A stretch of DNA of 64,000 bases from contig OZ024748.1 in NCBI GenBank assembly GCA_964016885.1, positions 14,508,001 to 14,572,000 of the forward strand, written 5' to 3'. The translations under genes were made by a program, and so were the position numbers. Within the stretch, counting starts at the first letter, position 1. Each line of letters starts with the position of its first letter. Origin of the DNA: Eledone cirrhosa. Lineage: Eukaryota. Under the pieces are notes generated by a model. That model did not search any database. It was not told the origin of the DNA and was given only the letters and a program-made list of their open reading frames with translations. This document shows positions 5,390-60,784 of the stretch, piece after piece.

Positions 5390-5974
5390 TACTCCATAGC
5401 TTCTGTTAAATTTGATAGCCCTGTACTTTTTTTTATACAACTGTCATCCTTCATACCATACCAATCCAATCTCCTCTCTAGCATCCTACATCTGATACCT
5501 CTTATACTCAATTTTTCTCTCTGTTCATTTATGCTTTGCCATGCTTTCCACATCCATCAAAACATGTGGGCTTCATTTCTTTCCAATCTTTGCAATTCTT
5601 CTGCTCACAGTGCCCAGGTCTCACTACCATGCAACATTTTTGTTCATATACATGCATCATACACTCTGCCCTTCATTTTAAGGAAAAAGCCTTTTGTAGC
5701 TAGCAGCAGTAGTAGCATCCTGTTCTTACTCTGGCTATGGTACTTTTGGAACAACCTCCTCCACTGCTGATTTGTTCTCCCATCTAATGGAAACTGTTGA
5801 CTCTTTCTACAGAGCTGTCTGGGCATTTAAAGGAGCTAGTATCCTGTGGGAATTCACTACTTACTGCACCTGTGCATCGGTCGCATATAAAACCTACTTT
5901 CTTTGATAGCCTGCCTCTGATCCCACTACATCTTTTATGTACCCATAACGTGAATTTTGAACATAGGATGGAAT
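5390..5974 (-). mobile_element. Degenerate RTE LINE fragment
   Basis: Minus-strand frames give SILCSKFTLWVHKRCSGI..FICDRCTG and LLATKGFFLKMKGRVYDAC, homologous to the 5988-6780 copy. Confidence 0.8.
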
Positions 5975-5987
5975 ATATATATACATA

Positions 5988-6780
5988 TATTCCATAAAAT
6001 GTACGCAATGCAGATTATGGGTACACAAGTGGGATAGCGGGCAAACTAACAGGTAGGGAAAACTACGTATGCAGTAGATGTATAGGGAAAGTTGGCAGTA
6101 GTAATCGCATTGATAGACACATTTATCCAATGCAGGTGGATTCTATATAAGTGGTTGATAGCTTCCGGTACCTAGGTGATCAGATTAGCATGGGAAGGGG
6201 GGGGGGTTCCGAGGTCATAGTATCTAGAATGAGGACAGGTTGGAAGAAGTTTAGGGAGCTGCTTCCTCTGTTGACAAAGAAGGGTTTCTCCCTGCTTATG
6301 AAAGGATGGTTATATGATGCCTGTGTGAGATGCGCGCTGCTGCAATGTAGTGAGACATGGGTAGAAACTGCAGAGGATATGTGATGGCTGGAGAGAAATG
6401 AAGCAAGCATGCTCTGTTGGATGTGCAATGTCAATGTGCGTGAACGACCAAGCATAGACGAGTTGAGAAAGAAACTGGGTATAAGAGGGATAAGTTGTGG
6501 TGTGCAGGAGAGAAGACTGAGATGGTATGGACATGTGATGCGCATGGAGGATGACCGCTGAGTAAAGAAGTGCCAAGAAATCCCTGTAGAAGGAAGACGC
6601 AGTAGAGAGAGGTAGACCACAAAAACATGGGCGGAGGTGGTGAGAGCAGACCTCAGATCGCTAAAACTCACGGAGGAGATGACGAAGGACCGTGACAAGT
6701 GGAGGTATGCTGTGCTGAATAGGACCCGTCCAACCCATGCAAGCAGGGAAAAGTGAACGTATGATGATGATGATGATGAT
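5988..6780 (+). mobile_element. 5'-truncated RTE-clade LINE (Cys/His finger, RT C-terminus, 3' tail), inactivated
   Basis: SIKCTQCRLWVHK..YVCSRC, then DSFRYLGDQI, GWKKFRELLPLL, LYDACVR..SETW, RRLRWYGHVMRM, KTWAEVVRADL, DRDKWR. In-frame stops. Ends in a (GAT)n tail. Confidence 0.9.
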
Positions 6781-7073
6781 ATGGCAACCCACTTCACTAC
6801 TGGATAGACGTGCCTGGCCACCAGCATATCACATGTAACAGAAATATATATCATGCAACAAAATATTATGGTAAATTAATCCTGTCTTAATTACCATTAT
6901 TTGATAAATGAATACTCCGTGACTCATAATCACCTACCTGGGATAAACTACTGATGTGAAGGGCTTTGGATCGCTAGGACCTACTTATCCTCAAGAAGTT
7001 ACAACATAACAATTAAGATAAACAACACTCTTCTGCAACTATACACATACACACACATATATATATATATATA

Positions 7074-7306
7074 TAATGTATAAAATCAATACAATATAAT
7101 TACCTCATTACCAGAGGTTTCCCGAATGAGGCGAATACGAAATAAACGACTTCATTCGTTCGTCAGACGAGGCAATATTTATTACCTCGTCTGAGGCAAT
7201 ATTATTGCCTCGTCTGACGAACGAATGAAGTCGTTTATTTAGTATTCGCCTCATTCGGGAAACCTCTGGTAATGAGGTAATTATATTGTATTGATTTTAT
7301 ACATTA
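7074..7306. mobile_element. Fold-back element with head-to-head minimal hammerhead ribozymes (Penelope-like pLTR remnant)
   Basis: About 100-bp near-perfect inverted arms. Plus strand: CTGACGA 7214-7220, stem II cgaatga/tcattcg, GAAAC-C-TCT-G-GTA 7259-7271, stem I caatattattgcctcgt/atgaggtaattatattg. Mirror copy on the minus strand. Follows (TA)n. Confidence 0.8.
7197..7288 (+). ncRNA. Type I hammerhead ribozyme motif, predicted cleavage after GUA at 7271
   Basis: Core boxes CUGACGA and GAAA, GUA triplet, 17-bp stem I with one mismatch. The base of stem II is an A.G mismatch. Confidence 0.7.
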
Positions 7307-7969
7307 AATTTTGCTCTGATATTTACATAGAGCACTCTTCATTTCTATGACCTTTTCTGTTTCCAACTGAAATTTCAATACTTATATATATATATATAGA
7401 CATATATATATTGTACACGCACATCCATAGGCCCTGAACTCCTGAGTTGTTGGGGATGTTTTATTGTCATAAAGCATGACTTGAGCCTTTGAAATGTTTT
7501 GGACCTCATCCACTTCCAGGTCTCAACACAACCAATTTCTTCCAAAGAAAGAAAGAACAAGAGGGTGAGAAAGAAAGATGGAAGAAGAATTGACCCCACT
7601 ACTAGACTGGTACTTTGTTTTTCAACCTCAAAAGGATAATAGGCAAAGTTGAACTCAGAATTTGCACTTGGGTCACTGGCAGCTGGAACAAATACCACAA
7701 TGCATTCTATTCAATGTTTTAACGACTCTGTCAATTTGCCACCTGGAGATATTTTAGCAGAGCATAAAATCTAAAGTGAAATATCTGTTGATTGCTACTT
7801 CAGTAGTTTCTTGTAACTCTAAGTTGATTCCTCCCTCAATATTCTTGCTGTTAGTGCTATAAAATTTCCCATTAGATAATAGCTACATCTCTTCACACAC
7901 ATGCATATATACACGTATACATCTAGTGTATTGCAGTTACCATTTTTACTATTATTATTACCCCCTACA

Positions 7970-30666: not shown

Positions 30667-30817
30667 ATATTGAAAGGATAACAAGGACGATTGATTACTC
30701 CTTCATTGCATTTATTGGTAGGTGACGCGCGTTTTGCCACTGATCAGCGAAACGCGCGTCACCTACCAATAAATGCAATAAAGGAGTAATCAATCGTCCT
30801 TGTTATCCTTTCAATAT
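30667..30817. mobile_element. Fold-back element retaining the 3' half of a hammerhead (GAAAC-GCGC-GUC)
   Basis: About 65-bp inverted arms. gaaacgcgcgtc at 30749-30760 is mirrored by gacgcgcgttt. The inversion point falls in the stem II/CUGA region (ctgatcagc). Tail to about 30920, then (TA)n. Confidence 0.7.
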
Positions 30818-31140
30818 ATTACACTCTGTATAGCTCTACACCTCATCACAGAAGTGAACCTAAACATCGAGTGCTCTCCCTGGTGAACCTGCAGTAACTC
30901 CAAGTTACACCCCCTGGATATATATATATATATAAATAAAACCTACCTTAATTTACAACTCTATATAATTAATTGCCTCTAATACATTGGTATCTCAATG
31001 AAAGGACAAGATATATTAATACATTAATAAACTAATAACCTACTTGGAGAAATATTAATATATATATATAAAGGTAGAACACTGGAAGGTAATATCCGTA
31101 GTGGTAGAGCACTCAGTCCATGGGACGAATTTGGTAGAAG

Positions 31141-31336
31141 TAGTAACACAACAGTTAGTTCACCATACCGAGAACAATTGTTTCACCTTATGCGGATCTT
31201 CAGCTCAGACTGGCAATGGTTATACGGACAGTAGTAACAGAACAGTAGTTCCATATAACCATTACCAGTCCGAGCTGAAGATCCGCATAAGGTGAAACAA
31301 TTGTTCTCAGTATGGTGAACTATAGTTGTGTTACTA
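31141..31336. mobile_element. Fold-back element with head-to-head hammerhead ribozymes
   Basis: About 85-bp inverted arms. Plus strand: CTGAAGA 31275-31281, short stem II cc/gg, GAAAC-AATT-GTT 31294-31305 with palindromic loop, stem I accagtccgag/ctc(a/g)gtatggt. Confidence 0.75.
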
Positions 31337-33224
31337 TATATAGATCCATGTGGTGCTTCTGTCTGATAATCCTGTTAATACAAGAGTGAAACTCCTGAGT
31401 AACAAGATGTATCACTTAGCCATAATAAAGAATATGTATATGACTGAGTGAACATTCAAGCTTTGATTTTGCCTTGTATACTCAGTAAAGTTATTGATGA
31501 TTGTGGGTCAAAGAAGTTAGTTTAGTCTTGCTAAATACATAATAGCCACTTTAGTGTTAGTAATGCATTCAGTGCACTCTGTAAAGTGATAGTGTTGGTA
31601 CAATATTAAAATGCACTCAGTGTACTCAGTAAAATTGTTGTTGTTATTAAGGGAATCCAACCAGCCAGAAGAAATCACCTCAAAAATGGAATGTATGTGT
31701 GAGATGTGCTTGTCCAACCCATCGACTGTTCAACCATGGTGACTCGTCCAACATGACAAGCAGACATAAAATGAAACTGAATAAATAATGAAGATGTGAA
31801 GAGTTTCATCTTGAATTTGAGATATGAACTGAGATCAGAAATTATGTATTACTGATCTCAGCAAAGGATTAATTATCTGAGATTAATTAAAGATAAAAGA
31901 TTCACATCAAATTCATCTGTGAGTGTGTGTCTGTCTGCGTCCATCTGTGACTGTGTGTATGTGTCTGTGTGTGTTTGTGTCTGTATGTCTTTGTCTTTGA
32001 TTGTGTTGGTCTGTGTGACTGTGTGTGCATGCAGTGATGCATGAATAATTGTTTCTAATCATGACAAGTTTAATCATAGCATGGAGAAATTTACATTACC
32101 ATTCCACAATTTAATATTGTCTGATAACAGAGGTCATCTGATTAACCCTTTTATTACCAAACTATTCAAACCTAACTCTGTTCTAGGAAATAAAACCAAA
32201 CATTTTAAAGGGCTTCTATTTAAATTAAAATTTTCCAATATAATTTTCTGCAAGAACCTTATGTTAAGTTATTAAGTAATTAAATAATCATTTAAGGGAA
32301 TCCCTAAAAATTCTTCATTAATCCTTTTATTACCAGACCAGGCACAGTGAGTCTGGTTCTATGAAATGAACCGCCCATTTTAAGGGTTTCTATTTAAATT
32401 GACATTACCCAACATAACTTTATATGAGAACCATATGTTAAGTTAATATCTTAGTAATGAAATAATTAATAGTTTTACTAAGTCCCACAACATACTTCAT
32501 TAATTAAATGAAATAAAGTGTATTTCATTTGGTCATGAAAGGTTTACCACCCACACTTATTCCTTCATGACTGATACTGTATCCTCTTTCAGCAACTTGT
32601 AACATTTACCCCACACAATTCCTCATATTTCTGCATATATATGTAATCCAAGCTCTGCATATGCTTGTCTTTATGTATGTATATATATGTGCGTATGTAT
32701 GTATGTTTGTGTGCATGTGTCTTTATGTATGTCTTTGTGTATGTATGTGAGTCTTGATGTATGTACATATGTATGTGTGCATGTGTTTTTATGTATGTCT
32801 TTATGTGCATATGTATGTAAATTTGTAGGTATGTATGTGTGCATTAATGTATGTTTGTATGTAAGTATGTATGTATGTAAGTTTGTAGGTATGTATGTGT
32901 GCCTTTAAGTATGTTTGTATGTATGTGTGTGTGCATGTATCTATGTATGTACTTGCTTCTTTGCATACATATATATATATAAGTATGTATGTGCATTCTT
33001 GAATGATTGTGTGCGTGTGTGCATCACCCTAGATTTATGTATGTGCGAATATGTTTATGTCAACACTTCAATTTCTCAGCTCATTTGCACTCAATTTTCT
33101 ATGACAACTTACTCTTGTTACAATAGTGTAAGTAAATATATTGTCTAAAATAGTCTGTGTGTAAAAATATTATCGACAGTAGTCTGCGTATATATATTCT
33201 GTAGAATTGTCTCTCTCTTTATTT

Positions 33225-39959: not shown

Positions 39960-40182
39960 TACTGCTGCATTGCTTGGGTTCCTTTCTTTAAACATCTTTT
40001 GCTTTTTTCATTGTTTCTTAACCAATAACATTTAGATATTTTCTGAAGAATTTGTGTGTTTGTGTATATATATATATATATATATATAAGCAGAAGGGAT
40101 ATTCAATTTGTTGGTTATTCAACCAATATAAATGTTTATAACTGATTCAGAGCACTCAACAGATTTTCTGGAGTATAATATT

Positions 40183-40544
40183 CAATGATATTAAATAAAT
40201 GGAAACTATATTTATAAAACCATATTTATTCTATTATATATATTTCAAGGGTACCAAAACTTTGGTACGCTTTCATCAGATAAAATACAAAGTTTGTTTT
40301 ATAAATATTGACATAACCAAGAAAAGATATCTTAACGGTTCAAGTTTTTCTTGGATAAGTTTTCTTGACTATCAAAGAAAAACTTGAACCATTAAGGTAT
40401 CTTTTCTTGGTTATGTCAAAATTTATAAAACAAACTTTCTATTTTATCTGATGAAAGCGTACCAAAGTTTTGGTACCCTTGAAATATATATAATAGAATA
40501 AATATGGTTTTATAAATATAGTTTCCATTTATTTAATATCATTG
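40183..40544. mobile_element. Long fold-back element (about 170-bp arms) with head-to-head hammerhead ribozymes
   Basis: Inverted arms caatgatattaaataaatggaaac.../...gtttccatttatttaatatcattg. Plus strand: CTGATGA 40448-40454, stem II aag-c-gtaccaaa/tttggtac-c-ctt, GAAA-T-ATAT-A-TA 40481-40492, stem I tattttat/atagaata. Mirrored on the minus strand. (TA)n on both sides. Confidence 0.8.
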
Positions 40545-40548
40545 TATG

Positions 40549-60448: not shown

Positions 60449-60784
60449 TGGAGGCACATGGCTTAGTGGTTAGAGCATTGGACTTGCAATCGAAAGGTTG
60501 TGAGTTCAATTCTCAGACCGGGTGATGTGTTGTTTCCTTGAGCAAGACACTTTATTTCACATTGCTCCAGTTTACTCAGCTGTAGAAATGAGATGAGAGG
60601 GACTGGGGTCCCTATCATTCCACTGCAAAGTGGTCGTGGAGGTGCCACGGCAAAAAAGCACCCAGCACTCACTGTAAATGAGGTTGGTGTTAGGAAGGGC
60701 ATCCAGCTGTAGAAATCAAGCCAGAATCAGCTCCCGTCCCACCCTTGCAAGCAGGGAAAGGTGGACGTAAAAGGAGATGATGAT
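60449..60784 (+). mobile_element. Full-length tRNA-headed SINE with CORE-like segment and RTE-type 3' tail
   Basis: A box tggcttagtggtt, B box gagttcaattc, CORE-like gtttccttgagcaagacacttt. Tail cccgtcccacccttgcaagcagggaaaggtggacgt plus GAT repeats, similar to the LINE end at 6722-6780. Confidence 0.85.

Follow-up and report, generated by a model that had tools for sequence, protein, structure and literature searches.

Opposite-strand hammerhead motifs at an Eledone cirrhosa locus as the ends of a truncated Penelope-like insertion, and where copies of its family begin

Two hammerhead motifs face in opposite directions in a window of Eledone cirrhosa DNA (the window being the whole 64-kb stretch that was analysed), within inverted arms at 7071-7177 and 7203-7309 that are 98% complementary. 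The initial annotation described them as complete twin hammerheads with a 17-bp stem I, carried by a young insertion. The question raised by this locus is whether such a pair is a device in its own right or a product of ordinary transposition, and what it records of the way in which the element was copied.

The insertion and the family to which it belongs

Judged from its sequence, the locus is a young, 5'-truncated insertion of a Hydra-clade Penelope-like element (PLE) with the usual inverted copy, that is, an ordinary PLE stub (Table 1). Element +1 is defined here as the A of TTTT-A-TATTGCC in longer copies. The left arm stops at a fixed 3' end (+105) and the right arm at about +180, and the 75-nt tail is present on the right arm (to 7381) and absent from the left one. 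A target-site duplication is unreadable because the insertion lies inside (TA)n. Between the arms, the filler consists of a single additional T, element bases +2..+16 in sense orientation with one mismatch (7180-7194) and bases +10..+1 in antisense orientation (7193-7202), the two pieces sharing a GA overlap (7193-7194). This filler was found at one of the 25 twins of the family, and it could have arisen by template switching after run-off at +1, the enzyme copying back over a short distance and then running off once more at +1. No contig bridging the locus was present among those of four runs of one study (at most two samples).

Table 1. Coordinates of the features of the insertion within the window
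Feature	Position	Strand	Basis
Left (TA)n target tract	7057..7073		sequence
Inverted tail-less pLTR arm, element +1 (7178) to +105 (7074)	7074..7178	-	arm comparison, genome copies
Hammerhead core CUGACGA, left arm	7160..7166	-	sequence, descriptor search
GAAA box, 3-bp stem III and GUA, left arm; predicted cut 7109/7108	7109..7121	-	sequence, fold
Junction filler, 24 nt	7179..7202		sequence
Tailed pLTR arm, element +2 to +180	7203..7381	+	genome copies, L034 comparison
Type I hammerhead motif, right arm	7204..7281	+	minimum-energy fold of 7203-7290, pair probabilities
Stem I, right arm	7204..7213/7272..7281	+	fold
Core CUGACGA, right arm	7214..7220	+	fold
Unpaired A, right arm	7221	+	fold
Stem II, right arm	7222..7228/7251..7257	+	fold
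Unpaired G, right arm	7258	+	fold
GAAA, right arm	7259..7262	+	fold
Stem III, right arm	7262..7264/7268..7270	+	fold
Predicted cut, right arm, after A	7271	+	fold
75-nt tail, spanning the family's two fixed 3' ends (+105, about +180)	7307..7381	+	genome copies
Right (TA)n target tract, first bases also matching the element	7382..7399		sequence

The youth of the insertion, as originally proposed, is borne out by the right arm, which agrees with the 3' pLTR of the copy L034 at all of +2..+185 but one position. Comparison of the arms also verified the single internal mismatch noted earlier (7139 versus 7241); only the right arm has the change, 250 arms carrying C at this position and one carrying A. 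A further mismatch at 7073/7307 is due to the left arm being already in the TA tract there. To the left of the insertion, inverted degenerate LINE-like fragments occupy 5456-6780 (arms 5456-5636 and 6338-6530). Elsewhere in the window, a partial tRNA match, probably a SINE head, lies at 60459-60516 (Rfam, 34.8 bits).

A genome search with the right arm gave 1562 first-look candidates, and the 40 that were scored were 96-100% identical over full-length matches. The arms are 99% identical to the ends of L034, in which a 712-codon RT/GIY-YIG frame and, after it, a long 3' UTR lie between two pLTRs. Most copies continue upstream into the common 3' UTR and share one downstream end, with (TA)n next to it; two 3' ends are fixed in the family, at +105 (105 exact matches beside TA) and at about +180 (52 exact matches).

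The L034 frame contains RWK (44), DKT in place of DKG (121), YRDD (353), CxCX5C (559), AIVY/YVG (577/598), CxxC (658) and CxH (689); Cys is absent between 577 and 600, as is an N-terminal GxKF/Y, the single GxKF match (at 507) not being N-terminal. This motif set matches the definition of the Hydra clade in the available text of Craig et al. 2021 (PMC8557442), and the combination of RWK and DKT without N-terminal GxKF/Y, the features of the GIY-YIG region and insertion into (TA)n were all found. By its motifs and its (TA)n target the family belongs to the Hydra clade, and it is distinct from Hydra-1_Obim, whose listed hammerhead differs. The Atlas clusters nearest to the frame product (P0001) carry GIY-YIG/RVT_1; P0001 itself matched no Pfam family, and nothing significant was found among PDB sequences. 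Its N-terminus resembles that of Hydra-1_Obim (judged by eye). Its endonuclease region appears shortened relative to a sister family, so that L034 need not be the active source. Other Hydra-like frames lie beside family copies at L032, L033, L034 and L035, one of them 44% identical to P0001 over 274 residues, and several Hydra families thus nest in common TA tracts.

The likeness to the Hydra-clade PLEs, as far as the available text of PMC8557442 describes them, extends to RWK, DKT, the CxCX5C linker, CxxC and CxH, a C-terminal GIY-YIG without CCHH, the (TA)n target, a type I hammerhead whose stem III is short and whose stem II has unpaired bases at its foot, and an inverted 5'-truncated copy with a tail at one end; one of the listed elements, Penelope-13_HM, has a hammerhead on both strands. 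In contrast to the elements of that list, which are mostly under 3 kb, this family has a unit of about 3.6 kb with a 1.2-kb 3' UTR; its tail has 75 nt where 30-40 are usually described, and both stem I (10 bp) and loop II (22 nt) exceed most of the listed ones in length.

Hammerhead motifs and their predicted folding

Both motifs are real. The CTGACGA cores lie where the initial annotation placed them, GAAAC-C-TCT-G-GTA ends at 7271 (plus strand) and at 7109 (minus strand), and the predicted cuts (7271/7272 and 7109/7108) follow from this. Each arm has the CUGANGA, GAAA and UH boxes in order plus three helices, as expected of type I hammerheads. A hammerhead descriptor had only these two hits across the 64 kb, and zero in 30 block-shuffled windows; the Rfam search gave no match to a hammerhead model at gathering or E-value thresholds and hit generic hairpin models below their own thresholds.

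When each arm is folded alone, the minimum-energy structure is a hammerhead with stems I, II and III of 10, 7 and 3 bp, and these folds are not unusually stable (z of -1.7 and -1.3). The motifs were called complete, which is correct for the type I cores in both arms, whereas stem III is weak (3 bp, pair probability 0.22-0.24) and missing from the centroid structure. The 17-bp stem I was recovered for the plus arm only, where 10 bp including two G-U pairs and a U.U mismatch are followed by up to 7 pairs with the filler (7196-7202), 6 of which fold in a construct beginning at 7197. The minus arm has just 10 bp, like the family stem I in general, and filler 7196-7202 is foreign to the family sequence; the long stem I is, on this comparison, an accident of the junction.

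The A.G opposition reported at the base of stem II in both arms (7221/7258) likewise exists: the canonical G10.1-C11.1 pair is absent, and a C-G pair comes next. It is family-wide (A in 178/179 and G in 177/179 arm records), and its occurrence in both arms is no independent evidence, since the arms were copied from one template. Variants in the helices are almost all singletons, the family being too young for covariation, and one change from G-C to G-U was seen in contigs of a related organism. The Hydra-clade hammerheads given in PMC8557442 File S2 commonly have bases left unpaired where stem II begins, and opposite-strand pairs are reported in the available text of PMC4209133; neither the twin arrangement nor the A.G is therefore new, both being already known from published PLEs, and the new lead is instead a pile-up of copy ends at the edge of the hammerhead, accompanied by an additional G.

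Longer RNAs are predicted to fold differently, other hairpins prevailing once filler and left arm are included. Transcript 7190-7300 would misfold (stem I probability 0.007); the whole two-arm unit is predicted to form one long hairpin of 107 bp (about -194 kcal/mol) with no ribozyme, and a dimeric hammerhead is not the predicted minimum of the two-arm dimer. A competing fold was also noticed at 7242-7282, in which +42..+54 pairs with +70..+82; it wins once the RNA reaches about +99, lowers the predicted stem I probability to 0.017 and could act as an off-switch of the hammerhead. Taken with the weak stem III and the two-arm hairpin, this fold marks the hammerheads as probable passengers; in the RNA that was copied they were probably left uncut. 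The AG/GT at +75/+76 is donor-like, and spliced genomic copies numbered 0 of 115 records.

Where the copies begin

We mapped the 5' ends of 157 arms of the family (97 of 105 tail-less ends and 60 of 61 tailed arms), using anchors downstream of the cut site and removing duplicates by their flanks; the studied locus contributes two of these arms. Starts within -4..+5 were observed in 25 of the 157, whereas the 171 positions around this interval together hold 30 ends (Poisson p about 1e-21). This pile-up, with a spread of 9 nt, coincides with the 5' edge of the hammerhead. An independent, tail-anchored sample had 8 of 52 starts at -1..+3, and in a second PLE family 11 of 33 arms started 4-8 nt before the hammerhead core (determined by eye, in a sample biased against shorter arms). 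Summed contig depth (four runs, one study) rises at +1, but it was set aside because such depth is unable to rank parts of the element. Since 81 of the 157 arms extend more than 400 nt beyond +1 upstream, +1 is only one stop among many. None of the 157 arms started at +71, the first base beyond the predicted cut; this suggests that uncut RNA was reverse transcribed.

The ends at +2 were often preceded by an additional G. Thirty genome-wide matches lack the +1 base. After 5 continuous copies with a point variant had been discounted, and two matches to one duplicated locus counted once, 24 independent ends remained. The extra G preceded 14 of these 24, and 9 of the 11 with a TA flank; among control ends at other positions the figure was 6 of 44 (Fisher p 2e-4). 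The first 30 of 52 matches for starts at +1 provided 26 ends, 6 of them with the G and many of them ATAT overlaps; the excess is clear for +2 starts only. These observations point to +1/+2 as the probable 5' end of the RNA and the point at which the reverse transcriptase ran off. Such a reading has to contend with the fact that 21 of the 25 ends of the -4..+5 peak have no G and that many are joined to TA by a TATAT overlap, which by itself favours the position of the peak and so counts against a transcription start. A start with U, as at +2, is moreover unusual for a capped transcript, which also weighs against it. Precedents for a start of this kind are the untemplated G regarded as a cap signature at full-length 5' ends of L1 and SVA, in the available text of PMC4859970, and the transcription start inside the pLTR of the D. 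virilis Penelope (PMC2377424). Our literature search, with early Penelope work and subscription journals incompletely covered, found no paper stating a PLE 5'-end pile-up at the transcription start, strong-stop cDNA or a cap G.

Alternatively, the pile-up might come from trimming or capture, with TATAT at -1..+4 annealing to (TA)n or to the partner cDNA, an explanation which we regard as possible although rather doubtful. The same tentative standing is given to its variants, in which an exonuclease trims the RNA 5' end back to the hammerhead helix and the G reflects a terminal-transferase preference. In agreement with such a process, many peak ends adjoin TA runs or make ATAT palindromes, the peak precedes stem I by 2-3 nt in both families tested, as an end set by structure would, and smaller clusters occur at other TA-rich spots (-84..-91). 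The longer TA-rich stretches upstream, however, gather far fewer ends (4 at -84..-91), the +2 ends that follow a G have no overlap with the flank, and a G is rare before the control ends. The repeated short copies ending at +1 in the fillers of the studied locus and L316 fit repeated run-off at a physical RNA end.

At the L316 junction, the element's first ten bases recur several times as short repeats ahead of the +1 arm, a pattern that resembles repeated run-off. Imprecise joins at +1 within continuous copies were considered as a mark of template jumping and rejected as too weak: they number 4 of 125 (L017, L156, L247 and L317) and lie in a slippage-prone run, two of the four have nearly the same deletion, and none is located at +5..+78.

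The head-to-head pairs provide a second source of information. An exact-core search detected 25 twin loci of the family genome-wide, with differing junctions; both arms start at -1..+3 in 22 of them, and in 7 of the 25 the centre is a perfect ATAT-overlap palindrome. When all collected loci were pooled, giving 60 head-to-head pairs (a biased set from which no rate can be taken), 58 of the 60 combined one tail-less with one tailed arm. Minority markers at +30, +36 and +81 were common to both arms in 26 pairs, and in none of the 60 were majority and minority bases split between the arms at these sites. A single pair, L123, has arms that differ at a common variant (-11).

Such agreement would also be expected if the second arm were a fold-back (snap-back) DNA copy of the first cDNA, the tail-less end being a resolution cut and not a priming site. 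In its favour are, besides the markers, the private or near-private changes present in both arms of four pairs (L002, L045, L082 and L206), which fit fold-back or arm-to-arm conversion, the near-symmetrical starts away from +1 at L045, L123, L208 and L150, and the ascription of the tail to endonuclease-mediated resolution in the available part of PMC8557442. We nevertheless think it unlikely as the general route. In 18 of the 60 pooled pairs each arm has sequence missing from the other, and 14 have a tailed arm whose start, at +83..+130, adjoins the end of the other arm, as twin priming on one RNA predicts; in addition, both boundaries of the tail correspond to RT start sites observed in vitro for Poseidon_Ac, according to the accessible portion of PMC11167929. 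Priming on both strands at two RT start sites seems to fit the pairs better than fold-back, and fold-back or conversion appears to happen as well.

In nine pairs (L070, L139, L153, L176, L180, L188, L197, L212 and L214) the tailed arm consists almost entirely of the tail and ends near +105, at the start of the other arm. In the tail-anchored sample, 12 of 52 arms start at +97..+151.

Formation of the stub and known systems

Priming by both target strands on uncut RNA, with the cDNAs running off a likely capped 5' end at the hammerhead edge, is in our opinion the probable origin of the stub, and we hold this with considerable confidence. By analogy with other PLEs, the GIY-YIG enzyme would nick both strands of the AT-rich (TA)n target. 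Reverse transcription would then start at two internal sites, yielding the tail-less (+105) and the tailed (about +180) arm, and both cDNAs would run off the RNA 5' end, with +1/+2 as the putative transcription start and the extra G as a possible copy of the cap. Their 3' ends would be joined by an ATAT overlap or a short filler; at the studied locus the reverse transcriptase may have reached +1 twice, leaving the 24-nt filler.

The first steps have a biochemical counterpart in Poseidon_Ac (Frangieh et al. 2024, PMC11167929). According to the available text, both strands of AT-rich DNA are cut by the PLE GIY-YIG enzyme and extended, reverse transcription begins within the RNA at two positions that bound the tail, the main template in vitro is RNA that has not been processed, and RNA ends at the cut site are absent. 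Poseidon_Ac belongs to another clade, and inverted copies and run-off at the RNA 5' end are not addressed in that text. The Adineta vaga Penelope (Arkhipova et al. 2013, PMC3846280) is similar in having, in the part of the paper that describes it, an inverted pLTR beside a direct one, an optional tail, solo pLTRs, palindromes at the pLTR 5' end and an Inr-like motif in the pLTR; it differs in its low copy number and visible target-site duplications, and the same part contains no 5'-end statistics. With L1 twin priming, as presented in the available text of PMC4859970, the pairs share priming by both target strands, small indels at the inversion junction and an untemplated G. The arms of L1, however, copy non-overlapping parts of a polyadenylated RNA, whereas in this family priming would take place at two internal sites and the arms often overlap over +1..+105.

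The closest published counterparts of the motif pair are the dual minimal hammerheads that Cervera and de la Pena (2014, PMC4209133) described in metazoan PLEs; in the available text these lie on opposite strands about 100-700 bp apart, are ascribed to truncated PLEs, and have a helix II of 7-8 bp, an extra base after the core and low predicted activity as monomers. At the present locus just 47 nt separate the cores, the 3-bp stem III carries a non-palindromic UCU loop, and the first pair of stem II is a C-G after the A.G, where theirs is G10.1-C11.1; 5' ends are not mapped in that text.

It is also very improbable that the locus is a retrozyme-like unit copied from cut or circular RNA. The metazoan non-LTR retrozymes (Li, Clavereau, Pollet 2026, 10.64898/2026.07.22.740005) do have type I hammerheads and, in the available text, are proposed to be PLE derivatives; and in one single-copy contig from a related organism both arms start at the cut site. 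Tandem non-coding monomers, however, are absent at the locus, which is a direct piece of an ORF-bearing element, the family runs upstream of the motif into the 3' UTR and ORF of the autonomous element, and starts at the cut remain at 0 of 157 arms. The contig in question, seen at one locus in one sample, joins its arms exactly at the predicted cut sites via an unrelated 33-nt hairpin.

As for the special twin device implied by the initial annotation, the two motifs are better described as pLTR ends of a Penelope-like insertion, and a selected or purpose-built twin-ribozyme unit (a MITE-like palindrome that moves in one piece, or a double cutter acting outward, with a stem I of 17 bp) can be set aside as least credible of all, because the intact cores of both arms and the perfect centre shared by 7 of 25 twins are outweighed by a filler found in 1 of 25, by junctions, tail side and flanks that vary between loci, by a common centre that two ends at +1 would give through their simplest overlap, by the full unit being predicted as one hairpin (about -194 kcal/mol), and by a long stem that requires filler bases.

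Returning to dual-strand priming on uncut RNA, the stubs may be strong-stop-like products, a wider reading to which we give an even chance. According to this proposal, the capped start would lie at the first bases of the hammerhead, and one uncut RNA would be copied from two internal RT starts in the 5' pLTR on both strands until run-off at the cap, so that the genome would record both the start and the uncut template; a jump from the RNA 5' end to the 3' pLTR could then regenerate pLTRs. If the proposal is true, genomic copies register a transcription start and show, in vivo, an uncut ribozyme in the copied RNA. The formation of pLTRs and inverted copies and hammerhead cutting in PLEs are questions to which such family statistics relate. 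A sharp 5' end at the hammerhead edge, combined with an extra G and the lack of copies beginning at the cut site, would account for the abundance of solo and opposite-strand hammerheads in animal genomes.

Further inverted arrangements were noticed in the window. A second twin, from another PLE-type family, is located at 31069-31338, with cores at 31203 (minus strand) and 31275 (plus strand), a palindromic stem III, a tailed left arm, a tail-less right arm and TA flanks; its search gave 2138 genome candidates, and many of its arms begin 4-8 nt ahead of the core. A third, at 40080-40547, has 178-nt arms that are 97% complementary and start at nearly one point, minimal hammerhead-like cores at 40279 (minus strand) and 40448 (plus strand), and an extra tail on the left. 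At 30667-30817, a 71-nt inverted repeat (97% complementary, 9-nt spacer), in which no CUGA-GAAA pair was noted, lies beside a TA run and is bordered by pieces of another repeat.
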